From positions 44,211-64,210 of the forward strand of contig MEDY01000189.1 in assembly GCA_001724265.1 (NCBI GenBank): a stretch of DNA of 20,000 nt. Reading direction: 5' to 3'. Made by a program: the position numbers and the translations under genes. The DNA is from Rhizaria sp. SCN 62-66. Lineage: Eukaryota. The notes beneath the pieces are model-generated. The model did not search any database. It saw only the letters and a program-made list of their open reading frames with translations, and was not told the origin of the DNA. Below, in pieces: positions 2,115 through 20,000 of this stretch. How positions within the stretch are numbered: the first letter of the stretch is position 1; every line of letters begins with the position of its first letter.

Positions 2115-4405
2115 ATGAAGGGTTTCTGCCTTTTGTTTGCTTTGGCTGCGCTTTTTGCAAGCGCCCTCGCTTACACAGCGGTACGTATCGCGCCCTATCC
2201 CGCCTGCCATGTTGCCCCCAAAGGGGAACTGGCTCTGCTCTCGCTTCCTTTGCTTTCGCCCATTTCCAGCATCTGCACATCCATGTTTGAATCCCTGCGT
2301 ACTTCCATGCGATGTTATACTCCGCAGAGAATCTCGTGCAGTGCTGGTGAGCGCGTGTGTCCGCCTCTTTTGCCACTCCAAGCCCCCTTTTAAGTCTTCT
2401 CGAGCCACTCCCCTCTACCAATCGACTCAGTGCTTTCCTCTCCTCTCTCACACCCCATTCTCTTCACCCCTATCCATTTTCACGCGTCCTTCGCCTTGCT
2501 TTACTATAGGAGGAGAGTCTTGCAAACCGTGTGACCACGTCTGCGGGGCCTAGTGCTTCGTTCGTGGATATGTACTCGGAGACTCACGCCGAGGGCGAGA
2601 TGTCTGCTGAGGAGGCCTACCAGCTCGAGGCCCAGCAGGAGGCCGACGACGCCGCTCTCGTTGAGATGTCGTCTGCCGTCGCCTTCGAGACTGAGCTCGA
2701 TGCCGCGGCCGAGACCGAGACCGAGGCCGAAGTTGACCGCCGCCGCCGTCGTCGTCGTCGTGGCGGCATCATCCGCCGCATCTTCGGCCGCCGCCGTCGT
2801 CGCCGCGGACGTCGCGGACGTGGACGTGCCGCTCCCCCGCGCATCATCCACCGCGCTGCCCCCGCTGCTCCCGCTGCCCCCGCAGTGGACAACACCGCCG
2901 TCCAGGCCGCGGTCGCCGCCGCCCGTGCGAAGGCTGAGGTCGAGGCCGCCGCCGCCGCCAGGGCCGCCCGCGCCAAGGCCGACGCCGACATCGCCGCCGC
3001 CGCCGCCGCCGCGCGCGCCAAGGTCGAGGCCGAGGCCCGTCTGGCCGCCGAGGCCAAGGCGCGCGCCGAGGCCGAGGCCCGCGCGCTGGCCGCTGCCCGC
3101 GAGAAGGCCGCCCGCGAGGCGCGCGAGAAAGCTGCGCGTGAGGAGGCGATCCGCGCCAAGGAGCGAGCTGTCGCCGAGGGCAAGGCCAAGGCCGAACGCA
3201 TCCGTCTGGCGCGCATCGCGACGCAGAAGCGCATCGCCAACGCGAACCAGAACGTGATCAAGAAGATCGAGAAGGCTCGCCGGCGCTCGCAGAGCTGGAA
3301 GAACCGCGAGAGCGCCATTAAGACCTCGCACGACACGATCGCGAGCGACTTCAAGAAACGCGAGGCCGTCAAGACTCAGGGCGCGGTGCAGATCGAGGCC
3401 GCCGTGGCGAAGCTTAACGTCCTCGCTCGCGAGATCAAGCGCGAGATCAAGGAGGTTGAGCAGAAAAAGGTCGAGCTCGACGCCAACACGCGCATCATGG
3501 CGCGCGCCGCCATCAAGAAGGAGGGCTCGTACCTCGGCGGTCACATCTCGTACCAGCCCGACGTGGCGGGCCCGCGCTTCCAGGCCGAGGCCAACGGCGC
3601 GCCCGCCGTCATCCAGACGCTCGAGCTGGGCAAGAACATCGCGCCCGCTGAGCACGGCCGCGGCTTGATCGACGACAAGTTCAAGGCCGACTTCGCGTCC
3701 AACCTGCGCGCCGGCAACCTCGAGGCGCAGGCCCGCGCGGACCGCCCCGGCATCCTGGAGGACATCCGCCACGCGGCCGCGTTCGACGACGGCGCTGACG
3801 GCCCCACCAAGGCTCAAGCCGAGCTCTCGGACAAGTTCCTCGACGGCTCCTTCCTCGAGACGCTCTCCGAGGCCGACGCCGAGGCTGAGGCCGAGCTCGA
3901 TGCTGAGCTTGACGCCGAGGAGGCCGCTATGGCCGAGGCTGAGGCCGACGCCGAGGCTGAGGCTGAGGCTGAGGCTGAGGAGGAGACTGACGCTGACTCT
4001 GAGGCCGATGCGGACGCTGACGCCGAGGAGGAGGCCGACGTCGACGCCGATGCTGACTCTGAGGCCGACGCCGAGGAGGAGGCCGAGGCCCCCGAGTCGT
4101 TCATGGAGACCGAGGCCGAGGCTGACGCTGCGGCCCTCAAGGACGCCGAGATCGTCAAGATGGAGGCCGAAGCCAAGGCGGCCGAGGACAAGGCCATGGC
4201 GCGCGCCCGCTCTGAGATCAAGAAGATCGACAACTTGGCGGAGCAGCACAAGTCTAACCACGCGCGCCTCACCTCGACCTTCGACTCGAGCCGCGCCAAC
4301 TCCGCGGCCTCCGACCTCGAGGCCACCACCAAGACCAAGAAGCTCGACCAGGACCTCTCCAAGTTCGAGCAGCTCGCCAAGCAGGTCGAGGCCATGGTTG
4401 AGTAA
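2115..4405 (+). CDS. Secreted modular precursor-like protein, 653 aa, exons 2115-2180 and 2510-4405
   Basis: Exon 1 encodes a typical signal peptide MKGFCLLFALAALFASALA-YTA. A phase-0 intron GTACGT...TATAG joins it in frame to ORF 2531..4405. Codons are strongly C/G-ending; stop is TAA at 4403-4405. Contains acidic Ala/Glu/Asp spacers, an Arg-rich segment and predicted coiled coils. No family recognised. Confidence 0.85.
2181..2509 (+). other. Spliceosomal intron, 329 nt, phase 0
   Basis: GTACGT donor, long pyrimidine-rich 3' half, TAG acceptor; splicing restores the frame. Confidence 0.8.
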
Positions 4406-4942
4406 GCAATAAGTCTTGGCTCGACTCTGTCTTTGTTGTTTGGTGTTGAGTAGTTTTTCTCGTGTGTTGGTGGATAACCTGTCGCGCAGGTTTACAAAGA
4501 ACAATTACAACAACTCTCATTTTCTCTTTCGTCCACAGCAATATGAATGAATGTGTGTCGCGCCCGTGTGGGTCTCCGTGAGCCGTGAGTTGGTCGGAGG
4601 GAGCTCCGGACTGACACTGGATGAAATCAATACACATCTTTACTTAAAACAGATATCTACGAGTATTGTTAACAGATTGGTGGTTATTATGACGATAACG
4701 AATGTGTATTCCTCTAGATAATGGGTGCCAGTGCTATGTCTTTCAGTGCAACTTAAAAGCGTAACAAGCGAATCTGCAATCATATTCACTGTGAATCAGC
4801 TTGTTCAAGTACTGTTAATACATGTTCTCGTTGATAACGTTTAAATAGTTCTCATATCGCGAAATTCTATCATTTTGAAATTCACATCTGATTTGTCCCT
4901 CGGCAAAAGTTTGTTATCCTTCCTCATATGAAATGCGTGCAC

Positions 4943-7900
4943 TCAGAAGTGGTTATCCCTGATGTCCACCTCGATCTCCTGTCCTAGGCTGAACACCGTC
5001 CCCCCGGTTCCGGCTCCCGCGCCGCCGCTGCGACCTAGGCTCACACCGCTGCCAGTAGCCGTCGAAGAAGAAGAGGAGCCACCGCTGACGCTGGCGCTAC
5101 CGTCGAGCGCGAGCGCGAGCGCTGCCGCGGTCGAGGGCGGCGCGGCGGGCGCAAGCGTGGGCGTGCACAGGTGCGCCAGCGCCAGCTCGCCCGCAAGCTC
5201 CGCCGCCAGCAGCGCGAACGACGGCGCGCTCGACAGCCGCGGCAGCCGCGGCGCGCGCGCGTCCGCAGACTCGCCGTCGCTCGCTGTCTCTCTCGCTATC
5301 GGGCCTGAGCCGGGGCTTGCGGGGCTGTGCTGCGACGGGAACTCGGGCGCCTGCGCCTGCCATGCCACCGGCGCGGGCTTGGACCAGAAGGACGCGAACA
5401 GCGAGAGCGGCCCCGACGACTTCGGCCGCGCCGTCTTGTGCGACTGCGACTGCGAGCTGCTGTTGGAGCTGCTGTTAGAGCCATTGCTGTTGCTGCTGCC
5501 GTTGTTGCTGTGCTTCGGCGCCATGAACGCGGCGAGCGCGGCCTCGAGCGCGGCGACGTGCGCTGCCGCAGCGTCGCGCGCGCAGCGCAGCTCCGCGCCC
5601 CGCAGCGGCGGCGGCAGCGCGGGCGGCGCCAGGCACGCGCCGCCCAGCGCCAGCGCCTCGCCGCGCGACAGCCGCGCCAGCGCGCGGGCCAGCGCCGCCG
5701 CCGCCTCCGCCTCCGCAGCAGCCTCCGCGGCAGCCTCGGCAGCAGCCTCCGCGGCGGTCTCGGCGTCAGCCTCGGCGTTCGCAGTGCAGCCACCCGCAGT
5801 CGCGCTGCAGCGGGGCGCCGCGTCCGCGGCGCACTGCTCCTGGAGCGCGCGCGCGGTCTCGGTGGCGGCGGCGAGCAGCCCCAGCACGTCGGCGACGCGG
5901 AGCCCTTCGAGCGCGGCCCGCAGGCGCGCGGCGCCGGCGTCCGGCGCGGACCGCGCGAGCGCGAGCACGGCGCGCGCGGCGACTGCGGCTACGCCGCGCC
6001 GGGCGCCCGCGCGCTCGCGCTGCAGCCACCCCTCGGCCAGCGGCGCCGCCAGCGCCAGCGCGTACAGGTGACCCAGCGCGGCGCGGCGCTTGGCCGCGGA
6101 CGCGCCCGCGATGGGCACCACAGCCAGTACGGCGTCCCACTCGCTCCCGCCCGTCGCCGGCGCAGACGCGGCCGCATGTTCACGCGCGGTGCCCGCGGAC
6201 GTCACGGAGCCTGCGGCGGCACCCGCAGAGGGCGGGTGGCCGGCAGCGAGCGCGGCAACGGGGTCTGTCCCCGCAGCGGCGGCGCGCGCGAAGGCGGCGC
6301 GAGCGAAGAGCGGCGGCGCGGGCGCGTGCAGATAGGGGTTGAAGCTGGGGTGCGCGGCCACGGCGGCGAGCGCGCGCGGGGCCGCCGCGAAGGGCCGCAG
6401 AGGCGCCAGCAGCGCAAGCGTGAGGCGGGCCGTGTAGGCGCGCGCCACGGCACTGCCGGCGCGGCACGCGCGCGGACACAGGTAAGGCGTCTGCAGCGTC
6501 AGCAGCCTCAGCCACGGCGCCGCGTCCTCCTCGGCGCGCGCGAGGCACCGCGCGCAGCGGGGCTGCGGCTGTGGCAGGAGCAGGGGGCGGAGGAGCGCGG
6601 CGGCGACGTCGGTGTGGGCGCCAACGGCGGGGCAGTCGCCGTGCGCGGCCGCCGCAGCCGCGCTGCCGCATCCGCCGCCGGCGGTCGCGCCCGCACCGAC
6701 GCCGAACACGGCGCGAGGGCTGCCGGCTCCATTGCTGCTGCTGTAGCCGGTGGGCGCCGGCGCGGCGGGAAACGGGTAGGCGTACGTGTTCGAGTCCAGG
6801 TCCGCGCAGGCGCCGCAGCGTGCGAGCGACAGAAAGCCCGGGCCGGCCAGCCCCGCCGCAGGCAGCAGCGCCGCAGCAGCGTCACCGCCGCCGCCTGGCG
6901 AGGCGAGGAGGCGCACGGCCGAGGCGCCGGCGGCGTCAACCGCGGCCTGCACAAGCCGCCGCGAGCGCAGCGCCTTGGCCGCGAACGACGACAGAGAGGG
7001 CTCGCCCGCGCTCGCGGCCGCGGCGGCGGCGGCCGAGGAGGACCGCAGCAGCGCCCGGGCCGGGACGGAGGCCGACACGGCGGCCGCCGGCGCAGACGAC
7101 ACCTGCTGGTGCTGCTGCTGTGCGCCATGCTGGGCACTGTGTTGCTGCTGCAACGACGTGCGCGGAAGCAGCAGCGGGAGCGAGCCGCCGCCAACGGCGC
7201 CGCCCGCGCGCAGCAGCGCCGGCGGGGCCGCCACGGCCGCGCCCAGCACTGCCCGCGCCGGCGCGCGCGGCCTCAGCGCCGCCACGGCCGCCGCCGACAG
7301 CAGCGTGCCAGTGCCGGGGCCGGGGCCGTTGGCCGCGGGGCCGGCACAGTCGCAGTCGCGGGCAACCCTGTACTCGGCGTCAGCATCGTCGTCGTCGCCG
7401 TCGTCGTCGTCGTCGAGACCGCTCCCCCGGCCGCTGGCGGCACCGCCCTGCTCGCGCCCCTCAGCGCCCGCGCGCACTGGTGCAACAGCCCCGTCGGCGG
7501 CCCGCGGCGCGGGCGGCGCGGGCGGTGCGGGCGGCGTGGGCGTGACCGCGAGCAGCTGCTGCACGCGGCACGCGGCAGCCAGCGGCACCAGCGCGGGCGC
7601 CAGCGGCGCGTCGTGCGGTGCCACGTGCTCCGGCCGCGGCGCGGGCATCAGCGCCCGCTGCGCCCGCAGCGCGCCCTGCGCGGCCACAAACATGCCGGAG
7701 CCATAGACAGGGCCGGAGCCAGTGTGGCTGAGGCCGCGGCTGTGCGCGGCGAGGCCCCAGGAGCGGAGCGCGCGGCGCGAGAGCGGGAGCGTGGCCGCGG
7801 CGGCCTCGACCGCAGTCCCGCCCAGCGCCAGCACCAGCGGCGCGGCCGCGAGACGCCGCAGCAGGTACAGGTCCACGACGCCCACCACGAGCGCGCGCGG

Positions 7901-10900
7901 CGTGTGCAGCGACACGCGCGCGCCCGCCGCAGACGCAGACGCGCGCGCGAACGCGGCTGCGGCTGTCGCGGCAGCGGCCAACGCTGCGGGCAAGGTGGAG
8001 GACGAGGCGGCCGTCGCGGCGGCGACGGCGGCGGCGGCGCTGGCTGCCGTGGCCGCCGCCGCAGTGGCCGCCGCCGCAGTGGTCGCGGCCACGTCCGCGG
8101 CCGTGAGCGCGGCGATGATGGGCTCTAGTAGTGGGTTGCCGACCGAGAGCAGCGGCACCACGCCGCCCGCCAGCGCCGGGCCCGCCAGCGCCGCACCGCG
8201 CGGCTGGGCGGGCGCGACCACGGGCAGCGGCGTAAGCGCGGCGTGCGCGGAGAGCGGCGCGGCGAGCGCGGCGACGGCCAGCACGGCGCGCGACACGGCG
8301 GGCGCCGAGGGGCCCGCGACAAGCACCGGCACGCCCGCCAACACGGCCGCCCACAGAGTCGGCAGCAGCGGCGCGAGCCGCGGGCCCAGCACGGCCAGCG
8401 CGTCCACGGCCGCGTGCGGCGCGTTGAGGCCCGCCAGCGCCGCGGGCGAAGCCGAGACGGCGTACGGTAGCGCAGCTGGCGCGCCCGCAGCAGGCGCAGG
8501 CACGGGAGTCAGCGTCTGTGCGGTCGTCGTCGGGGGGCAGAGCAGCGGCCGGTATGCGGGGCCGGCCCAGACGCGGCCCCAGTCGCACAGGCCGCGGGGG
8601 GCCCCGCAGCCGCCGCTCCCGCTGCTGTCGCAGCTGGTCGAGTCGAGCAGGGCCGAGAGGGCGCGCCACGGGCGCTGGCGCGGGCGCAGGGCGCCGAGAC
8701 CGTGGCTCGCGCCCGCAGCCTCCGCGAGCACCGGAGACACCGCAGCCAGCATCCCGACTGCGCCGGAACCAGCATCCGCATCAGCACCAGCATCAGCATC
8801 AGCATCAGCATCAGCGTCAGCGTCAGCGTTCGTGTCAGCGTCAGCGTTCGTGTCAGCGTCAGCGTCAGCGTCAGCGTCAGCGTCAGCGTCAGCGTCAGCG
8901 TCAGCGTCAGCGTCAGCGTCAGCGTCAGTGCGGGTACGGGCGCAGGTGCGGGCGCTCTCGAAAGCGGCGGCCCGCTGCAGCGCGGCGTCGAGCGGCGAAC
9001 GCGGAGCCGCCAGCAGCAGTGCCGCCACGGCCGCCGCGCCCACCGCCAGCCCCGCCGCGGGGTCGCAGCTCGCTGTGTGCGCTGTGTGTGCTGTGTGGTG
9101 GAGCACCGAGGCCATGAGGCGCCGCGCGCACTGCAGCATGGGCCCCAGCCCCGCGGCCCCGCCCAGCGCCACCCGCTGGCCCTGCGCGCCCGCCCCCATC
9201 GCTTGCGACGATGTGTCGTCTGCGGGCGCGAGGGCCTGCGCGGCAAGCAGCGGCAGCAGCCCCGCGCGCGCGGGCGGGGCCCAGAGCGCCGCGGTGGCCG
9301 CCCACGCCGCGCACAGCACCGCCGCGGGGCCCGCCAGCGCCGCAGACAGCTGTACCCCGGCCACCGTCAGTTCGCCGGCCGCCGTCAGCTCACCGACCGC
9401 CGTCAGTTCGCCGACAGGCTCTGATGCTGTCGCAAGTGCAGTCGCTACGGTTGAGGCATCACTCTCGGGCGATGTGGCTCTGTGCTGCTGCTGCTGCTGC
9501 TGCTGCTGCAGCTTACGGTGTCGCCGCCGCAGCTGTCGCAGCGCGCGCGCGCGGAGCCTGTCGGCCGCGCGCTCGGTGGCGGCGTGCGCGTCGGCCCGGC
9601 TCAGCGCGCGCGCCTCGGCCGCGAACGAGTCCACCACACACGGCGACTGCGCATACGACTGCGGCTACAACTGTGCGTCTGACTGTGACCGTGGTGCGCA
9701 GGGCAAGAGCCCCCAGAGCGCGGTGGCGGCGTCGGCGGCGAGCGCGAGTCCCAGGGCGTGGAGCGGCAGCGGCAGCAGCGCGAACACGGCCTGCTGCGCG
9801 AACCCGCGCGGGCTACTCTCGTCGCGCACGCGCGCGAACCGCGCGTACCCGTACAGCACGCGCACGCCAGCGCTGGCAGCGTCAGAGGCGCCTGCGTGGG
9901 CGGGGGCGTGGGTGTCGCTCTGGAGCAGGGCTGCGGCGGCGGCGCGGGGCGCTCCCAGGGACGGCAGCTGCGGGTGCGGCCGCCACCCCCAGTCCGCAGC
10001 AGCGTCGGTGTCAGCGGCAGCAGCGGCAGCAGCGGCAGCAGCGGCAGCAGCGGCAGCAGCGTGAGCAGCGTGAGCAGCGTGAGCAGCGTGAGCAGCGTGA
10101 GCAGCGTGAGCAGCGTGAGCAGCAGCGGAGCCGGTCTGCGCGAGTGCTGGAGCGACCGTAGCGGCGTCGGCGAGCGCGCGCGGGGCGACGCAGCTGGCGC
10201 CCCAGAGCCCGCGCGCGACGGCGCGCTCGGGGCACTCGTTGCTGTGGCTGCTGTGGTGGCCGTTGTGGCCGCCGCCGCTGATGCTGCTGCTACTGCCGTT
10301 GCTGTTGTTGCTCCTGGCGCTGGCGCCGCCGTTGTCGCCGCCGTCGTCGCCGCTGTCGCCGCCGCTGTCGCCGCTGTCGCTGCTGCTGCAGTCGCCGAGC
10401 CCCTCGCCCGCCCAGCCCCAGGGCCGCGCGGAGTGCCTCGTCGCACGGGCCGCCCGCGCCGCGCGCGTGGCAAGGGCGGCGCGAGACTGGGGTGACTGGG
10501 ACTGGGACTGGGACTGGGACTGGGGCTGGGGCTACTGAGGCTGGGATGATTGAGGCTGGGACGATTGAGGCTGAGGATGAGACTGTTTGTCCCGCTTGCG
10601 CTCCAGCAGCGCCCGCAGCCCGCGCGCGGCCGCGCACCGCGACAGGCCCGCATCGCAGTCTGCGTCACCGACAACGCTCGCACGGGCGCTGCCCCCATTG
10701 CCGTGACCGTTGCTCCTGCTTGCAGTAGCAGTGGCCGCAGGAGCAGCAGCAGTGAGCGGCAGCGGGGGGCGCGCGAGCGCGACCTGCACGGTGAAGCAGT
10801 GCGTGGTGTCGGTCTCGGCGGGCGAGAAGGTGGCCGAGTCGGGGAAGGCGAGCGCGCAGGCGGAGGCCACGGCGGCGGCCGAGAGCCCGTGGACCGGCGG

Positions 10901-11080
10901 CGGCGGCCACAGCGCGTACGGCCGCGGGCCGTGGTAGAGGTCGAACGTACACGCGCCCAGCAGCGTCACCCAGGGTGAAAATGCCGCCGGCGGCGCGGCG
11001 TGCCGCAGCGGCACCGCGGCGCGCGCGGGCGCGCGGGCGGGCCCGACGGAGGCGGGCGCGGGCGAGGGGGCCGAGGGCAT
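4943..11080 (-). CDS. DENND6: DENND6 (FAM116)-like DENN-domain Rab GEF, about 2045 codons in one frame with two internal TAG codons (10532-10534, 9665-9667)
   Basis: ORFs 10532..11080, 9665..9865 and 4943..9637 share one frame, and I read the gaps as open apart from the two TAGs. DENND6-like blocks occur in the expected order: WVTLLGACTFDLYHGP...LAFPDS...DTTHCF; LYGYARFARVRDESSPRGFAQQAVFALLPLP; LWAAVLAGVPVLVAGPSAPAVSRAVLAVAALAAPL; ALVVGVVD; RLTLALLAPLRPF; FNPY; LYALALAAPLAEGWL. Stop is TGA at 4943-4945. The start may lie further upstream (see findings). Confidence 0.75.
8770..8928. repeat. Hexamer tandem repeat (GCGTCA/GCATCA)n encoding (Asp-Ala)n inside the DENN gene
   Basis: Directly visible; two interruptions encode Thr-Asn; frame preserved. 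Confidence 0.95.
9361..9415. repeat. Three imperfect 18-bp repeats encoding GELTAV/GELTAA/GELTVA
   Basis: CCGTCAGTTCGCCG-like unit occurs three times, in frame in the DENN gene. Confidence 0.8.
9484..9510. repeat. CAG/CTG trinucleotide repeat encoding poly-Gln
   Basis: (CTG)n on + corresponds to the LQQQQQQQQH tract on -. Confidence 0.9.
10012..10126. repeat. Two adjacent 9-bp tandem arrays: (GGCAGCAGC)n and (GTGAGCAGC)x7, encoding poly-Ala and (Ala-Ala-His)7 in the DENN frame
   Basis: GTG recurs every 9 nt from 10061 to 10115. Confidence 0.9.
10485..10580. repeat. Gln/Pro/Ser repeat region: 15-bp (QPQSS) and 6-bp (SQ/PQ) units, containing the first internal TAG
   Basis: Minus strand reads CAG CCT CAA TCG TCC CAG CCT CAA TCA TCC CAG CCT CAG TAG CCC CAG CCC CAG TCC CAG TCC CAG. 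Confidence 0.9.
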
Positions 11081-11870: not shown

Positions 11871-13688
11871 ATGAATCCATTCCCATTGGTGGTATTCATC
11901 CTGGTGATCGTTGGAGTCATCATCACTGTCAACTTCAATGTCTCCTTCCCCATCCCTTGCTGGCCCTTTCCCAACAACGACAGCAACGCTACCAACGGCA
12001 ACGCCGCCGTCAATAACAACGACAACACGATCAACGCCGCCGTCGCGGCCAACGCCGCCGCAGACCCCGAGGCGGCCGCGGCTACCGCCGCCGCGGCGCC
12101 GGTGCGGCGCGTGCGCGTGAGCTACACGGCGGTGCCCATCGCGGGCGTGCTGCTGCTGCTGCTGGGCGGCGCCATCGGCGGCGACGACGTGTGGGCCGGG
12201 CTCGCGGGCGACAACGACATCCAGCCCTACACGATCATGATTCTCTTTATGGCGCTTGCGTACGTGTGCATCTCGCTCGACTTCACGGGCGCGCTGGCTT
12301 TCGTCTCGCTCAAGGTCGTCGCCGCCGCGGGCAGCTCCAAGCGCCGCCTCTTCGTCGCCTTCTTCTGCCTCACGGGCGCGCTCACGGCCTTCACGTCCAA
12401 CGACGTCGTTATCCTCACGCTGACGCCCGTTGTGGTTTACTGCGCGCACTTCGCGCAGACCGACGCGGAGCCCTACATCTTCACGATGTTCTACGCCGCC
12501 AACCTCTTCTCCTTCTTCTTCATCATCTCCAACCCGACCAACATCATCGTCGGCGAGGCCGTCGGACTCTCATTCGCCGACTTCATCTCCTACATGCTGT
12601 TGCCCGGCTTTGTCACCGTGCTCGCCACGCTCGTCGCGCTGTACCTCTACTTCCGCTCCTCCCTCGACGGCGCGCTCGCGATGCCCGCGCTGGACCCCGC
12701 CAAGGAGCTGCAGTCGCGCCGCGGCGCGCTCGTCCACGCCGCCACGCTCGGCGTCTGCATCCTCTTCATGTGCGTGTCCTCGCTCGTGCCCGGCGTGCGT
12801 CTGTGGATGGTTGCGCTGGGCGCCGGCATCGTCTCGCTCGTCTACAACCTCTTCGCGCTGCCCTGGCGCCTCCCCGCGGGCGCGCCCGGCAGCGGCCGCG
12901 GCGGCGCGCGCGGCGGCCACCGCGCCGGTGCGGGCGACGCGCACGCGCAGCACGGGTACGTCGAGTTCGGGGACGAGCAGCTCCAGCAGCCCGGGCACGG
13001 GGGCGCGCTTGGCGTCATCGACCTCGGCGGCAACAGTAACAGCAACATCAACAACAGCGGCTTGCACTCGGTTGTGATCGGCGACGCGAGCGTTAGCGTG
13101 ACTATTAGAGGCGCCGACGGCGGCAGCGGTGGCAGCGAGGTTGTCGTGGCGGGCATCGAGCCGAAGCCGCAGGCGCACATGCCGATCGTCAAGGCGCTGC
13201 CGTGGGCACTGATGCCCTTCGTGTTCGGCATGTTCTGCCTCGTGCAGGCGCTGCTCGTGCACGGCTGGATTGACGAGTTTGCACGCTGGTGCATTGGTGC
13301 CATGGGCGGCGTTGACGCCCTACGCGACTCGGACGGCGGGGCGGCGCCGTTGGTCACTTCCTTGTTCATGATGTTTGTCACAATTGTGCTGTGCAACGCG
13401 GCCAACAACCAGCCCGCAACGATTTTGCTTACGCGCATCCTCATTTCGCCGCGCATGAAGGCGATGGGCCCGTTAGCGCACCGTGCCGCTGTGTTGTCCG
13501 TCATTGCTGGCTCAAATATTAGTGCGTGCTTCACCACGATCGGCGCACTTGCTGGGATCATGTTCTGCGGCGTACTCGCCATCCACAAGATCGAGATGTC
13601 CTACGGTCGCTTCATCAAGGTCGGCGTTATCTCGCTCCCCATTGCGCTCGCCTGCGCGCTCGCGATCACTGCCGTCGTCGCGATTTGA
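11871..13688 (+). CDS. ArsB/NhaD (ion transporter) superfamily permease, arsenical-pump-membrane-protein-like, about 605 aa
   Basis: Many hydrophobic TM-like segments. Motifs IQPYTIMILFMALAYVCISLDFTG, FTSNDVVILTLTP, AAN...ISNPTNIIV, LPWALMPFVFGMF, NNQPATILL and GSNISACFTTIGALAGIMF are typical of this superfamily. ATG at 11871 was chosen because 11604-11870 looks non-coding; an upstream exon is possible (CCAG at 11855-11858). Stop is TGA. Confidence 0.85.
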   Translation: MNPFPLVVFILVIVGVIITVNFNVSFPIPCWPFPNNDSNATNGNAAVNNNDNTINAAVAANAAADPEAAAATAAAAPVRRVRVSYTAVPIAGVLLLLLGGAIGGDDVWAGLAGDNDIQPYTIMILFMALAYVCISLDFTGALAFVSLKVVAAAGSSKRRLFVAFFCLTGALTAFTSNDVVILTLTPVVVYCAHFAQTDAEPYIFTMFYAANLFSFFFIISNPTNIIVGEAVGLSFADFISYMLLPGFVTVLATLVALYLYFRSSLDGALAMPALDPAKELQSRRGALVHAATLGVCILFMCVSSLVPGVRLWMVALGAGIVSLVYNLFALPWRLPAGAPGSGRGGARGGHRAGAGDAHAQHGYVEFGDEQLQQPGHGGALGVIDLGGNSNSNINNSGLHSVVIGDASVSVTIRGADGGSGGSEVVVAGIEPKPQAHMPIVKALPWALMPFVFGMFCLVQALLVHGWIDEFARWCIGAMGGVDALRDSDGGAAPLVTSLFMMFVTIVLCNAANNQPATILLTRILISPRMKAMGPLAHRAAVLSVIAGSNISACFTTIGALAGIMFCGVLAIHKIEMSYGRFIKVGVISLPIALACALAITAVVAI

Positions 13689-14487
13689 TGCTTGGTGCTT
13701 ATACCCTGTCGGTCAAGACTGACAACAAAGAACTGCCTTTTTCTACATGACTATTCAACGAATTCTACGATTGATACATAGCCTTTGATACAATTTAGTG
13801 GACTACATGATATGACGTGAATTATAAGCTCTTGCATTGCCGCCACTCGATTTGGGACTGGCAAGAGACCTAAATACTTCATACTCGACAAAATGATGTT
13901 AAAATGACCGGTTCATATTGTAAAACATTAAATAATATAATAAAAACATATAGTAAAATTGAATAAGTAATTATTTTAAAAATCGGATGCTTTAAAAATT
14001 TAATAGGTATTTAATGTATTATTTCAACTAAAATTAAGCAATAAATTTATTTTGATATAAAATGTCGTGGTTTTTGAAAACTTTTGAGAATGTAATCATA
14101 TTCTCCAGCAACCGATCACAGGGTATAAAAGCCAACTTAGCTCTTTTTGCTTTAAATAACACAAAAAAACTTTTAAAAGCTTTATTAATCTTTAAAAACA
14201 AAAAATGTTTTTAAATCGAAATAATTATTAAACTATTTTAAATACATACTTATAGAAGGTAAATAGAGATTTAAATTTAATTTTAATCAGAAAATATTAA
14301 TTGTCATTTTATTTTGCATTTTTGTTTCAGTTTACTGTTGTTTTTGCAGTTGGGACTTCTATTTGTTTGCTTCCAGCATGTTTTCACAAAGGGTCGAGAA
14401 GTTTTTAAATATACAGTGTATGTATATCATACAACAACCAATAACATCTTTACATGATTAAAAGTCAGATGCGACAAAACTCAAGCG

Positions 14488-16646
14488 TTAGATGTCTTGG
14501 ATGGCCTGGACGATGGTGTGAAGGTCCTCACGAGTGAAGCCGCCACTCTCGTCGATTGCAGTGACGAGGTCATCTTCCGTCGGCCACATAAACCAAATAT
14601 CATTGACAGAGCGGCCCGCAGCTGTGTTAACACGGACGATGCGGTTCGCCACGACCTGCAGTAACGCGGCAGCGAGCAAGCGCCACTCCCCCTTGCCAAA
14701 GGGCGGCAGTGCGTTACGAAAACGACCATAAAACGTGTCACAAAATGACAGCACGGCACCGACAGGCTCAGTATGCGGCCGGTCCGCACGCACCAAATTC
14801 ATGATCGAGTTGAGGTGCGGCCGCAGCACGGTCTTGAGCGCGATCAGTCGTCCGTCCGTCACAGCGGGCAGCGTGATCGTCGGGAAGCTCGTGTCCTCTG
14901 CAGCAGGCGAGTCAGCTGCAGCCTCGGACGCAACGGCAGCCGCAGGCTTAACGGGCGGGAAGAGCACGTTGTGCGATATGTCACTGGTCCACTGGAAGAC
15001 GACGCGCGTGATGCGGCCCACGGGCGTGAGATACCGGTCCAGCGCGGCCCCGTCGGCCGAGGTCAGTGCCTCGTGCAGCTCGTGGTCTGCCGCGGCCGCC
15101 GCGCGCGCAGCGGCGCGCTCCTCCCGCCGCGCGGCGCGCAGCTCGCGCCGCGTCTCCTCGTCCCAGCCATCGCCGTCGCTCTGGTTGCTGTTGTCCCCGC
15201 TGTCGTGATCATCGTCGTCGCCGTCGCCGTCGGGGTCGTAACGCTCGAGCCAGGGCAGCCAGGCGTCGCCACCCTCCTCTTGGTCCGGGTCCGCGTCCGC
15301 GCCCGCACCGTCGTCGCTCTCTTCCTCGTCCTCGTCCTCCAGCTGCTCTTCCTCGCTGCCGCCACTCTGGTCCTTCGAAGCGGCGGCAGCCTTCTCCTTC
15401 TCTTTGTCGGCAGCGCGCTGCTGCTTCTGCTGCCGCTTCTGTTGCTTCAGGATCTCCTGCTGCTGCCGCTCCACCATCCGCGCCTGCTCGGCCGCCTCCT
15501 CATCCTCGTCAGCCTTCACCTGGTCAGCCGTGGCTTGGTTTGCCTTGGCCATGGCCTCGGCCTCGGCCGCAGCACTCTCGCTGCTCTTGCCACTCGCACT
15601 CGCAGCGCTGGCCACGGCGTTGCGGCCGGGGCGGACGCGCTCGGTGACCTGAAGCCCTACCACCTCCGGCGTCGGCTCCGTGGCGGCCTTCTTCTTGCTC
15701 CCAGCCTTCTTGCCGCCCACAGCGTCGGCCTTAGCGCTCGTAGCGTCATTCTTAGCGCTGTCGGCGCTCTTGGAGGCGTGTGCCTGGGAGCTCGTCGGAG
15801 CTGCAGCCGCCGTCACAGACGCCCTGACAGCTGTCTCCGCAGTCGCAGGCGCAGCAGGAGCCTTCGGAGCAGCCGCGGCCTTGGTGGCGCCGACCGCCTG
15901 TTCCAGAGCCACCTTGTCAATGGGGTGGCCCTGGCTCGGGCTCCGCGAATGAGCCTGAGTCTGCGTCTGCGTCTGGGGCTTGGCCGCTGCCGCGGGCTTA
16001 GCCGCCGCCGCGGGCTTGGCGCCCGCCGCCGAGGCCGCGGGCGGGGGCCGCGCGGCGAGGTCCCTGGAGAGCAGCGAGTCCTCCGAGAGTCCGGCGCGCG
16101 CGGCGGCGGCGCGCTGCGCGCAGGCCTGGGAGCAGTAACGCGCGACTTCGACGACGCCCGCGGCGGCCGCGCTCAGGCGCGCGTCGGGGCCCTGCGGCAG
16201 CACCGTGCCGCCGCCGCGCGCACCCGCAGCGGCCCGCGCCTGCTGCTGTTGCGTGTGCTCGCGCGCCTGCTGCGCGGCGGCCAGCGCGTCGGTCAGCAGC
16301 TCGCGCGACGTCCGCGGCCCCAGCGCGCGCGCGCAGCAGGGGAACGCGCACTGCAGCAGTTCCGTGCGCTCGATCAGCACCGCGTCCCACTGCGCGGGGT
16401 TCAAAACTTTCGTCTGCGGGAAGGATAATGACAACGACAGCGGGTGATAGATGACTGTGAGCAGATGAGATTCAATGAAGCGTGGACGAGTTCGGGAAAG
16501 AGCAATGCTTGAGAGAGACGTACCGCGCGCGCAAGGGCGTCTTCAGAGACCTCCTTCTGACAGAGGATTTCCTGAACCTTGAGGGCAAACTGCGAGGCCC
16601 GGAGTGCGGCCTGCTGTGCCGTCATCGACTTCTTGGCGGCCGACAT
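14488..16646 (-). CDS. RPAP2: Rtr1/RPAP2-like RNA polymerase II CTD phosphatase, 682 aa, exons 16646-16524 and 16413-14488
   Basis: Spliced N-terminus reads ALKVQEILCQKEVSEDALARA|TKVLNPAQWDAVLIERTELLQCAFPCC...RYCSQAC, matching the RTR1-type zinc finger (ER-x5-C-x-F/YP-x-C ... F/YCS-x2-C). C-terminal DTF...EWRLLAAALLQV resembles the RPAP2 C-terminus. Long disordered middle. Stop is TAA. Confidence 0.85.
16414..16523 (-). other. Spliceosomal intron, 110 nt, phase 0
   Basis: GTACGT donor, TTCCCGCAG acceptor; frame restored. Confidence 0.85.
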
Positions 16647-17130: not shown

Positions 17131-18750
17131 TCAAGCGATCCCGTGCGCCTTGAGCAAGGCGTCGACGGCGACGCGGACGTCTGCGAAGTCGTGCTTGGGC
17201 TGCTGCAGCGGGAGCGAGGAGCGCGGGATCGACCCCGTGCGCACGAAGACCGAGTCCCAGCGCGGGCCCGCTCTGTTGGCGCCCTCGATGTCCGCCGCGG
17301 GGTTGTCGCCGACGCCGTAGCAGCGCGCGACGGCGGCCCCGTGCGCGGCGGCCTGCGCGTCGAGCAGCGCGTCGGCGTGCGCGTAGGTCGCGGCTGTGGG
17401 CTTGCCGCAGACGACGGGATGCAGCGGCTCGCCTGTCACGCGCGCATAGAGGTACCCCAGCACCTCGGTAAAGGCGCCCTGCGCCAGCCGTGGGACGTCG
17501 AAGCGCGCCGAGTAGAGCAGGTCCGGGTTGGACAGGTAGAAAGGCGTGTGGCGCGGCGCGTAACCCCCCCGCAACGCCTGAGCGACCGTGTAGAGCTGCG
17601 ACGGACCCAGGTGCGGCGCGCCGCAGTAGGGCGCAGAGGCGCGCTGCGCGCCCGCGGGCTCGTGCGCGGGGTCCTGCGGCAGCCCGAACCCGCTCGCGCC
17701 GCCGGTCGACGCGATCTCGGCCCCGGCCTCAGGGGCAGCAGAGGAGGCGAGGTTGGTGGTGCAGAGCTTGCTGTAGGTGTGCGAGGCGCCCTCACCGCCC
17801 GTGCACTTGCCCTTGTCCTTGCCTCTGCCACACTCACGCTCTGCGGCGCGCTCGGCGACGCGCTCGGGGCGGCCCGCGAGGAGCACGTCGAGGCAGACCT
17901 GGAGGTCGACGTACCAGTCGCGCGGGTCGTGGAGTACCAGCACCGCCTTGACCTCGCCCAGCAGCGCGCGCGCCTCGGCGACGGCGTCGCTGCCGTCCGC
18001 GCGGCGCCCGTCAGACGCGCGCGCCGTGGGGTAGTGCAGCGGGTCGAGCGAGGTGTGCGGGGACAGCAGCGAGCCGAATTGCGCGTGCACGTCCGCCGGC
18101 GTGATCACGCGCGAGAAGCCGTACGCGCGCGCGACGGCCGCGCAGTCGCGCATGCCAACCACAAGCACCAGGTCCTCGCCGTGGCGCGCGGCGAGCGGGC
18201 GCAGCGGCGAGTGAGATAGCACCACCTGCTCGGGCGCCACGGGCAACGCGAAGAGCTCCGAGAGCTGCTGCGCCTTGACCGACTCGAGCACGCCGCCACC
18301 GTTGGTCAGGTAGATGTGCGGCAAGCCCGCCGCAGCAACTGGGGCGGGGAGCACATATAGCAAGGAGGACAAGGTGGGGTCGTGTGATGTGAGTTAAAGC
18401 AAAGCAAAGCGACAACGATGCGAGTGTAGAGATGGGCGCGTTTATGAAGGGCAAGCGAGGCGAAGTGGAACTGATTAGATATGAGACACAAGGAAGAGTC
18501 TTATGGGAAAAGTACACGCGACACAATAAAAACAGATGTTAACTGTGAGATATTGAGCAAGGATACGCGTTCACGTACCTTTGTGGAGCGCTTCCTTGGC
18601 TCCCGGGATGGGGTTGCCACTCTTGAGAAGAACACCATCGATGTCGAAGGCAAAGGCGGGCAGCGCAGGCTTGGCAGCAGATGCAGCAGCCGAAGAAAAC
18701 GCACGCACACCTAAAGAGGAAGCGACACGTGCAACAGCCTTACGAAGCAT
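17131..18750 (-). CDS. HDHD5: Mitochondrial HAD-superfamily class IIA hydrolase, HDHD5/CECR5-like, 459 aa, exons 18750-18579 and 18338-17131
   Basis: Exon 1 is missing from the ORF track: MLRKAVARVASSLGVRAFSSAAASAAKPALPAFAFDIDGVLLKSGNPIPGAKEALHK, a presequence plus HAD motif I (DxDGV). Exon 2 has LTNGGG, LSHSP, HDPRDWYVDLQ, SNPDLLY, GKP, GDNPAADIEGAN and VRTG. Stop is TGA. Confidence 0.9.
18339..18578 (-). other. Spliceosomal intron, 240 nt, phase 1
   Basis: AAAG|GTACGT donor, CCCCAG acceptor; G+TT rebuilds Val in frame. Confidence 0.85.
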
Positions 18751-19535
18751 GGCGTCGAGAGAGCGTTACAATCGCTTGTTCACATCAAATTAGAGTCAGC
18801 CTTGAAAGGCATGACAGGGTTCGGGCCCAACGGGTAGATTGTACTGCTGAGTTCCTTCAACATTATTTGCGAGGCTTTGTGGTGACAAAGTACCACATGT
18901 CACAAAATATATTACCTCTACTTCGCTAACATATCTTTATTTTTATCATAGCCGCTTCATAGACCCTGTCTAGGGGTGCCTAAAGTGGAGCGCCAGAGCA
19001 AGTAGACACGAAGACGGACACCAGTCAGTCGGGCATGCGCTCTACAATCTGCCTTGTAAGAAACATCCCAATATACACTCTACACATAGCACTGCGTTGC
19101 ACAATTTTCACCCACTTATTCGTCTTAGAAAGTATACTGTGAAGCGAGATGCTTCCAAAAGCAAGTGGCAGGAGCACGGTGTCCGACTGCCCAGCGCAGA
19201 AAATTGCCAATCATAGGCTACCAAGACATAACATCTAACAAATGTGCATATAACAAGCACATATCTTAGACAGACACGCCCCCGCCCAGCTAATTACATT
19301 TGCTCAGGAGCAAGGGGATAAAGCCAAAGCGCGAGATACAGAGTGCAAAGATTGTTTTGGGTTCTGTTTTGGATTCGGGCACGGTTCTCAAAAAGTCCCG
19401 GCCTTCCCCGGCCCCCCACTATTGACGCCCACGGTCACTGCCCGGAGGCTGGAAGAAAGCCTCGCTCTCGCTCTGTCCCCGTTCACGACTCGTCCTCTCG
19501 AGGCGGAGCTTGCTTTTGTCCCAACTGCATCAAAA
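18751..19535. promoter_or_regulatory. Divergent promoter region between HDHD5-like and RPL17
   Basis: Head-to-head arrangement; GC-box-like CACGCCCCCGCCC near 19275 and pyrimidine tracts at about 19460-19525 before the RPL17 ATG. Confidence 0.4.
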
Positions 19536-20000
19536 ATGGTACGTACTCAGTTTTAGTGTTGTTTGAATGATATATTCTGCAGTGTAGTATTTCGTCGTTT
19601 GTTCGCGGGATCTATTTTGCTTTGTGCTGGGGCAGGGTATCGTTGTGTTTGTGGGCCCCAGAGAGCCCAGCGTCTTGGTGTTTGGCAGAGCTGTCGTCTA
19701 AAGCTCGTGCGTCCGCTTGCTCTCCGTGTGCTCATTGCTTTTCCTACGCCTTTTGTGATTGCTCCCCTATAGGTGAAGTACGCTAAGGTCATCAAGGGCG
19801 ACGAGAAGGTCGCCAAGACGCGCGCCACTGGCATCCGTGTGTCCTTCAAGAACTCCCTTGCCACCAGCTCCGCCATCCGCGGCATGCCCCTCCGCCGCGC
19901 TCAGGCCTACCTCAAGAACGTCATCGCGCACAAGGAGGTCATTGCTTTCACCAAGTACAACTACGGTGTCGGCCGCAACGCCGCGTGCAAGCAGGTCAAG
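19536..20000 (+). CDS. RPL17: 60S ribosomal protein L17 (uL22), 5' part; exons 19536-19538 and 19773 to window end
   Basis: ATG|intron|VKYAKVIKGDEKVAKTRATGIRVSFKNSLATSSAIRGMPLRRAQAYLKNVIAHKEVIAFTKYNYGVGRNAACKQVK matches the eukaryotic uL22 N-terminus (RVxFKN, AIxGM, A-x-x-YL-x-x-V, GVGR). Confidence 0.93.
19539..19772 (+). other. Start-codon intron, 234 nt, directly after the ATG of RPL17
   Basis: AAAAATG|GTACGT ... CCCCTATAG|GTGAAG; T-rich. Confidence 0.88.

Follow-up and report, generated by a model that had tools for sequence, protein, structure and literature searches.

Possible decoding of UAG as sense in the DENND6-like gene of an uncultured, GC-rich and intron-poor eukaryote

The 20,000-nucleotide stretch of contig MEDY01000189.1 from Rhizaria sp. 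SCN 62-66 analysed here (positions 44,211 to 64,210, referred to as the window) carries on its minus strand a gene (4943-11080) which, judged by its sequence, is DENND6-like and whose reading frame contains two in-frame TAG codons. We infer, tentatively, that ribosomes read through UAG in this organism, a possibility that is put forward as a real candidate. Both TAGs would then be translated, with UAA and UGA terminating, and the DENND6-like gene would be intact and would encode one protein of approximately 2045 residues. UAG would be either a rarely used sense codon or an efficiently suppressed one in an uncultured eukaryote that is intron-poor and rich in guanine plus cytosine (GC). The likelihoods attached below to this reading and to its rivals come from weighing the evidence against our own rough priors.

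The gene is delimited by translation, third-position GC periodicity and stop counts. Its minus-strand frame, running from the ATG at 11080 to the TGA at 4943-4945, comprises 2046 codons when translated with table 1, and its only internal stops are a TAG at codon 183 (TAG1, 10532-10534, minus strand, context cag-TAG-ccc) and a TAG at codon 472 (TAG2, 9665-9667, minus strand, context ttg-TAG-ccg). This bears out the original prediction, which had described a frame free of TAA, TGA and frameshifts with two TAGs only, and the peptide contexts that it gave match the translation (SSQPQ-TAG-PQPQSQ for TAG1 and SDAQL-TAG-PQSYAQS for TAG2). The other five frames of the same interval have 13, 18, 20, 21 and 39 stops, compared with three in the gene frame. 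Three or fewer stops were obtained in none of 2000 mononucleotide shuffles (mean 21.7) and in none of 5000 shuffles preserving codon position (mean 17.0). The length of an open reading frame (ORF) alone means little in the window, as non-coding frames are open for up to 939 codons, the longest of these lying at 5309-8128 on the plus strand. Third-position GC is approximately 0.8-1.0 in the gene frame on both sides of both TAGs, including 0.84-0.98 just downstream of TAG1, and is lower only within GCT-type triplet repeats; since it is high in one frame throughout, the frame has no frameshift. Over the 60 nucleotides (nt) 3′ of TAG1 and TAG2 the GC content is 0.72 and 0.73 respectively, in contrast to 0.35-0.43 after four of the five real stops of the window.

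The identity of the gene was examined with a DENND6B profile built from 12 vertebrate sequences, these being taken from 120 listed of 1441 DENND6B proteins found, and compared with the translated product by hhalign. Three colinear matches were obtained, one upstream of TAG1, one between the TAGs and one downstream of TAG2. Block 1 (10694-11005, minus strand, residues 26-129) aligns with profile positions 23-125 (score 41.1, E-value 4.8e-4) and possesses the motifs TFDL, LAFPDS and DT..CF. Block 2 (9695-9856, minus strand, residues 409-462), with the sequence YGYARFARVRDESSPRGFAQQ, aligns with positions 123-177 (score 36.9, E-value 2.9e-4). Block 3 (8222-8365, minus strand, residues 906-953), which starts LWAAVLAGVPVLVAGPS... 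and represents the core DENN domain (LWE..L.GEP..V.APSP), aligns with positions 255-302 (score 31.8, E-value 6.8e-3). By comparison, three controls of similar composition (the 939-codon antisense frame and the products of two neighbouring genes) scored 14-21, with E-values of 0.11-0.63. Two further colinear matches towards the C-terminus were not significant, these being a block after block 3 (E-value 0.21) and the best match in the dDENN region (E-value 0.86, within the range of the controls). As the blocks are colinear and lie before, between and after the TAGs, termination at either TAG would cut the DENN domain.

The original prediction of a DENND6-like gene with conserved blocks split by the TAGs is thus upheld by the profile comparison, with its three colinear matches above the controls, while Pfam does not support it. 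Pfam assigned no family to the complete protein, nor to four large pieces or four short blocks of it, with Avl9 (PF09794) and DENN (PF02141) remaining below the gathering score; the hits obtained with two of the large pieces were all unrelated and below threshold. Residues 1-600, with TAG read as Q, were searched by HMMER (phmmer) against 1.84 billion representatives, and three proteins were returned, these being the organism's own 182-residue and 66-residue products and a vertebrate DENND6B fragment (P0004). The last was matched over two stretches (E-value 9.7e-4) and itself has the Pfam domains Avl9 and DENN. The gene accordingly resembles the DENND6 (FAM116)/Avl9 type in that its uDENN and core DENN blocks match those of vertebrate DENND6B colinearly. 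It differs from that type in that it reaches no Pfam threshold and in that its product of approximately 2045 residues would be 3.5 times as long as the vertebrate proteins of approximately 580 residues. The difference in length is due to low-complexity inserts of hundreds of residues, rich in Ala, Gln and Ser, the one separating block 1 from block 2 exceeding its counterpart in vertebrate DENND6B by some 280 residues.

GTACG[T/C] forms the 5′ end of all four introns recognisable in the window, which have a higher AT content than the exons and, where complete, a length of 110-240 nt. They are found in a HAD hydrolase gene (18339-18578, minus strand, 240 nt, AAG^GTACGT...CCCCAG), where the exon with the HAD motif is separated from the rest, in an RPAP2/Rtr1-like gene (16414-16523, minus strand, 110 nt), in the uL22/RPL17 gene (19539-19772, plus strand, 234 nt, ATG^GTACGT...TATAG), where the intron lies directly after the ATG, and in gene A, where it starts from 180 on the minus strand (CAG^GTACGC) and runs off the window. 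Such a very strict splice signal is what one would expect of an intron-poor genome. Highly conserved intron signals in intron-poor eukaryotes are the subject of an earlier study (PMC2483917), and a literature search on the GTACGT donor found nothing relevant. It may be mentioned that a CTCAC/CTCAT motif is present approximately 45-55 nt 5′ of the acceptor in each of the three complete introns, and that the introns of the window are located at the 5′ ends of their genes.

On the minus strand in the 5′ part of the DENND6-like gene, GTACG occurs only at 10950, 10919, 9854 and 9848. As these sites lie within the TFDL, PYAL and YGY blocks, introns starting from them would delete conserved sequence. 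GTACG sites near 10950, 10920 and 9847 inside conserved motifs had been part of the original prediction, and they do exist there. It had also held that the real introns are unlike the flanks of the TAGs, with which the present analysis agrees. No GTACG[T/C] donor is in a position to excise either TAG, and neither codon can be spliced out by an intron of the canonical type of this genome.

Both TAGs lie within tandem repeats. TAG1 is inside a period-15 repeat (10518-10573, 3.7 copies, 82% matches) that is adjoined by a period-6 array (10494-10530), and TAG2 is inside a period-12 repeat (9646-9673, 2.3 copies, 81% matches). In repeat register, TAG1 stands opposite the TCA/TCG (Ser) codons of the other copies and TAG2 opposite TAT (Tyr) and GAC (Asp) of neighbouring copies, in neither case opposite CAG. 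The residue inserted would be Gln by context, or Ser or Tyr by repeat register. The earlier statement that the TAGs read naturally as Gln stands as far as context goes, but the register makes Gln no longer the sole reading; since the TAGs align with Ser and Tyr/Asp codons, Gln has no advantage over Ser or Tyr. Since the repeats align with no homologue, neither TAG stands opposite a conserved residue.

Five gene ends are present in the window, two of them with TAA, three with TGA and none with TAG. UAA is retained as terminator by gene B (ORF 2510-4405, TAA at 4403-4405, plus strand) and by the RPAP2/Rtr1-like gene (ATG 16646, TAA at 14488-14490, minus strand), in both cases followed by AT-rich DNA. 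TGA ends the DENND6-like gene itself as well as the CitMHS/ArsB-type transporter gene (ATG 11871, TGA at 13686-13688, plus strand) and the TIGR01456-type HAD hydrolase gene (ATG 18750, TGA at 17131-17133, minus strand). The original prediction that UAA still acts as a stop agrees with these gene ends. An apparent TAG end of gene A is located at 141-143 on the minus strand, its last 13 codons being AT-rich and starting at CAG^GTACGC. As it follows a GTACGC donor and these codons are AT-rich, this TAG probably lies in the intron running off the window and is not a terminator.

The two codons recur outside the window. The 182-residue product ending at TAG1 (P0002) is present on three contigs from JGI/IMG and ENA, the longest of 89,635 bases, and the 66-residue product ending at TAG2 (P0003) is on a separate JGI contig of 3,500 bases, which is not the window's own contig. 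For this organism there are contigs of 55 kb and 89 kb. The HMMER scan with residues 1-600 found no allele extending past TAG1 in the 1.84-billion-representative library. Four sequencing runs were compared as contigs and not as reads, with repeats masked; small shares of the sequence words are present in five further runs (X5-X9). The contig pieces of these runs end at 10540, with 45 unaligned letters beyond, and for the 2015-2017 runs only 4-5 differences from the window are listed over its 20 kb. The sole difference listed within the DENND6-like gene in any run is a T>G at 9351, in the contig from the RNA library (2025, another study). Contigs of this polyA library (X4) match the gene 3′ of TAG2, at 7593-8005, 8287-8761 and 8982-9429, which is not proof of transcription. 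In the AT-rich bins 14008-14674 and 18677-19343 the DNA runs showed depth and the RNA run showed none, a hint of real RNA but not evidence of it.

In favour of translation of UAG are the frame free of TAA, TGA and frameshifts, the DENND6 blocks on both sides of each TAG with their N-terminal motifs preserved, the lack of a canonical intron, the GC-rich DNA that follows both TAGs, the gene ends without TAG, the recurrence of the TAGs in other assemblies and the RNA-library contigs on the gene. Several features weigh against it. Codon counts over seven coding segments (4919 codons) gave 187 CAG, 13 CAA, 2 TAG, 222 CTG and 22 TTG, so that TTG makes up approximately 9% of CTG plus TTG and TAG approximately 1% of CAG plus TAG. 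Judged by the TTG/CTG ratio, TAG is under-represented some tenfold, since approximately 17 would be expected overall were it an ordinary Gln codon, and two are seen. In-frame TAG is found in just one of the seven segments, and at no conserved alignable position. When it was sought in the other genes of the window, the six other segments (approximately 2,870 codons, with 121 CAG, 99 CTG and 16 TTG) yielded none, as against a prediction of approximately 17-20 for a TAG used as an ordinary synonym of CAG. Within the DENND6-like gene alone the counts do agree with translation: TTG accounts for 6 of 129 such codons (123 being CTG), which predicts approximately three TAGs in 68 Gln-type codons, with two seen. 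Both TAGs are situated in fast-evolving in-frame tandem repeats to which no homologue could be aligned. The absence of TAG from the five gene ends is weak evidence, having a probability of approximately 0.1-0.3 if TAG ends an assumed 20-35% of genes. The listed X4 RNA contigs, at 7593-9429, are off both TAGs, and no joints are listed, with repeats masked. ARAGORN found no tRNA gene in the 20-kb window, and eRF1 lies outside it. Finally, a random nonsense mutation drawn from the codon content of the gene is a TAG with probability 0.66-0.72. Taken as a whole, the original proposal of UAG as sense is partly supported. Its gene identity, its blocks, its introns and its UAA stop are upheld, while translation of UAG is a candidate reading, the codon being confined to one segment of seven at approximately 1%, against approximately 9% for TTG.

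These features bring into consideration the standard code with two fixed premature stops, in a young pseudogene or a loss-of-function allele of a near-clonal population, the downstream frame being open only through too little time having elapsed. This is somewhat doubtful. With the above probability per event TAG clearly exceeds all other nonsense outcomes, and two TAGs would arise in 44-51% of cases, so that random mutation to a stop would most often produce just such a pair. Each TAG differs by one base from the codon that another copy of its repeat has in that register (TCG for TAG1 and TAT for TAG2), TAG is missing from all other coding segments, and at approximately 78% GC non-coding frames can stay open for as many codons as noted above. 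The few differences listed among the 2015-2017 runs also mean that one clone could carry a fixed null allele. However, such a gene would need two independent nonsense hits and no frameshift in 6.1 kb of slippage-prone repeats, and TFDL, FPDS and YGY..F..V.D...RG, motifs that do not vary within the vertebrate family, would have stayed intact in the N-terminal blocks of a dead gene. The lack of TAG among the five terminators, and of an intact allele in the library of 1.8 billion representatives, also speaks against it. Alternatively, under the standard code, both UAGs could be leaky at these particular sites through near-cognate tRNAs and a weak +4 C, giving little full-length protein. C at +4 is a weak termination context, and the two TAGs have in common the context G-TAG-CC, while the +4 bases of the five real stops are G, G, T, C and G. 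The shared C at +4 and +5 is weak evidence because C is common there in DNA this rich in GC. Known readthrough motifs include UAG-CAR-YYA and UGA-CUAG, which the TAG contexts do not resemble, and two leaky stops in series would leave very little full-length product, making this explanation improbable.

Removal of each TAG within an unconventional GC-rich intron, with a length that is a multiple of three, is a little less probable still. No homologue aligns with the sequence around either TAG, the stretch separating blocks 1 and 2 is longer than in vertebrate DENND6B as described, the 60 nt before TAG1 are pyrimidine-rich and lower in GC (0.57), and GT sites are present, among them the GTCGGT at 10672 that had been noted originally and which does exist on the minus strand. 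In the stretch where a donor for TAG1 could lie with no loss of a conserved block (10765-10535) there are ten GT sites, the best agreeing with GTACGT at four of six positions, and between block 2 and TAG2 (9760-9668) there are only four, all of them poor, the best agreeing at three of six. These candidate donors compare badly with the AT-rich introns known here, all of which have GTACG[T/C]. Moreover, the frame would have to survive both introns, the chance of which is approximately 1/9, and the high in-frame third-position GC goes on just past TAG1. Introns running from the GTAGCC that overlaps TAG1 to the next CAGs would be 10-49 nt long, with none of these lengths divisible by three. A long intron from CAG^GTCGCG at approximately 10786 to an acceptor before block 2 was also considered and was ruled out on its donor, its GC content, its length and its inner third-position GC of 0.96-0.98. 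An assembly or sequencing error at repeat junctions is very improbable; assembly error as such had been raised in the original prediction. Both TAGs do lie inside tandem repeats, the Logan contigs shown stop at 10540 beside TAG1, and none of those listed covers 9475-10539. Against this, products end exactly at TAG1 on three contigs from two sources and at TAG2 on an independent contig of 3.5 kb, for which reason an error is unlikely; no differing letters are listed at either TAG in the four runs, where the repeats are masked and cover is not displayed.

Returning to translation of UAG, reassignment of this codon with UAA still a stop has been described in Iotanema spirale (Gln), the rhizarian exLh (Leu) and Scotinosphaera (Ser), and also in Protocruzia and several phyllopharyngean ciliates (PMC11687900, PMC5304391). 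The proposal for the window is similar in that UAG would be sense with UAA a stop, TAA being present at two of five gene ends. The codes described are founded on numerous UAGs that lie in frame at conserved sites, together with cognate tRNAs and transcriptomes, while the window offers two codons in one gene, in unalignable repeats, at approximately 1% of CAG plus TAG. In Amoebophrya sp. ex Karlodinium veneficum all three stop codons are reported to be used as sense (PMC6394959). This would be a possible analogue if UAG is sparingly tolerated as sense, with the difference that all three stops are involved there and only TAG in the window. The sense stop codons of Amoebophrya are said to be infrequent. 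Amoeboaphelidium was considered as a UAG-decoding lineage and rejected, as its UAR codons are read as Gln (PMC5304391), which does not fit the TAA terminators of the window. A literature search on stop reassignment in activated sludge found nothing relevant. The organism probably belongs to none of the listed UAG-only lineages, judging from its sequence, as it is GC-rich and intron-poor with a uL22 that is nearest to animals and far from ciliates.

The eukaryote of the window occurs in bioreactor, wastewater and activated-sludge metagenomes. Its coding DNA has approximately 75-82% GC and its spacers 25-50%, the lowest value (25%) being at 14001-14500. At the end of the window lies the start of the uL22/RPL17 gene (plus strand), whose exon 2 product is 99% identical to P0152; a search with uL22 returned only the organism's own protein. 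Compared with the uL22 of solved ribosomes (PDB), animals scored highest (approximately 163 bits) and Tetrahymena, Giardia, kinetoplastids and microsporidia lowest (88-127 bits). This ranking is a lead and not a phylogeny; together with a protein atlas, it would place the organism only as a eukaryote nearest the animal, fungal and plant type and far from ciliates, kinetoplastids and Giardia.

The other genes of the window include a coiled-coil gene (gene A) at its start on the minus strand, with the intron from 180 mentioned above. Gene B (2510-4405, plus strand) encodes an acidic product of approximately 630 residues rich in Ala, Glu, Asp and Lys, which is probably coiled-coil or disordered and has no Pfam match; RNA-library contigs lie on this gene at 2521-2929, 3022-3925 and 4092-4459. 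These are followed by the CitMHS/ArsB-type transporter gene (11871-13688, plus strand), the RPAP2/Rtr1-like gene (14488-16646, minus strand, intron 16523-16414) and the TIGR01456-type HAD hydrolase gene (17131-18750, minus strand, intron 18578-18339). A relative of the organism is represented by P0006, from a JGI contig of 16,375 bases, with a HAD hydrolase 69% identical to that of the window. P0006 ends ...GYLY-RYV..., as expected from reading into an AG^GTACGT donor, and the corresponding intron is absent from the window gene.

A 41-base stretch of the window, used as an exact pattern, did not occur in the viral and genome contig collections searched, and protein-guided scans of genome and viral contig collections for relatives of the window gave no match. 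A metagenome scan returned only two distant loci. One of these (L001) is 42% identical, has a GC content of 52% and carries long ORFs without introns when read with the standard code. The other (L002, 1-3027) has a HAD gene 45% identical to that of the window, with a coding GC of 0.66-0.67 and flanks of 0.43-0.48, and may be a distant relative of similar genome style. Both loci were set aside as evidence on the genetic code, having no known kinship to the organism.

If the DENND6-like gene is simply broken, the finding is an ordinary one. The alternative set out here, plausible rather than probable, is that UAG is decoded in a GC-rich, intron-poor, non-ciliate eukaryote of wastewater reactors in which UAA and UGA are stops and UAG makes up approximately 1% of CAG plus TAG. 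Reassignment of UAG without UAA is reported from a handful of nuclear lineages (PMC11687900, PMC5304391). Should the code change prove real, it would represent a further UAG-only reassignment with unusually low codon use. Standard gene calling would then truncate the proteins of this organism, and the 182-residue and 66-residue fragments ending at the TAGs are already in public protein collections. It would add a GC-rich non-ciliate in which the codon is still very rare, at an early stage of stop-codon capture, and its very low frequency could mark an early or ambiguous capture under strong GC pressure.

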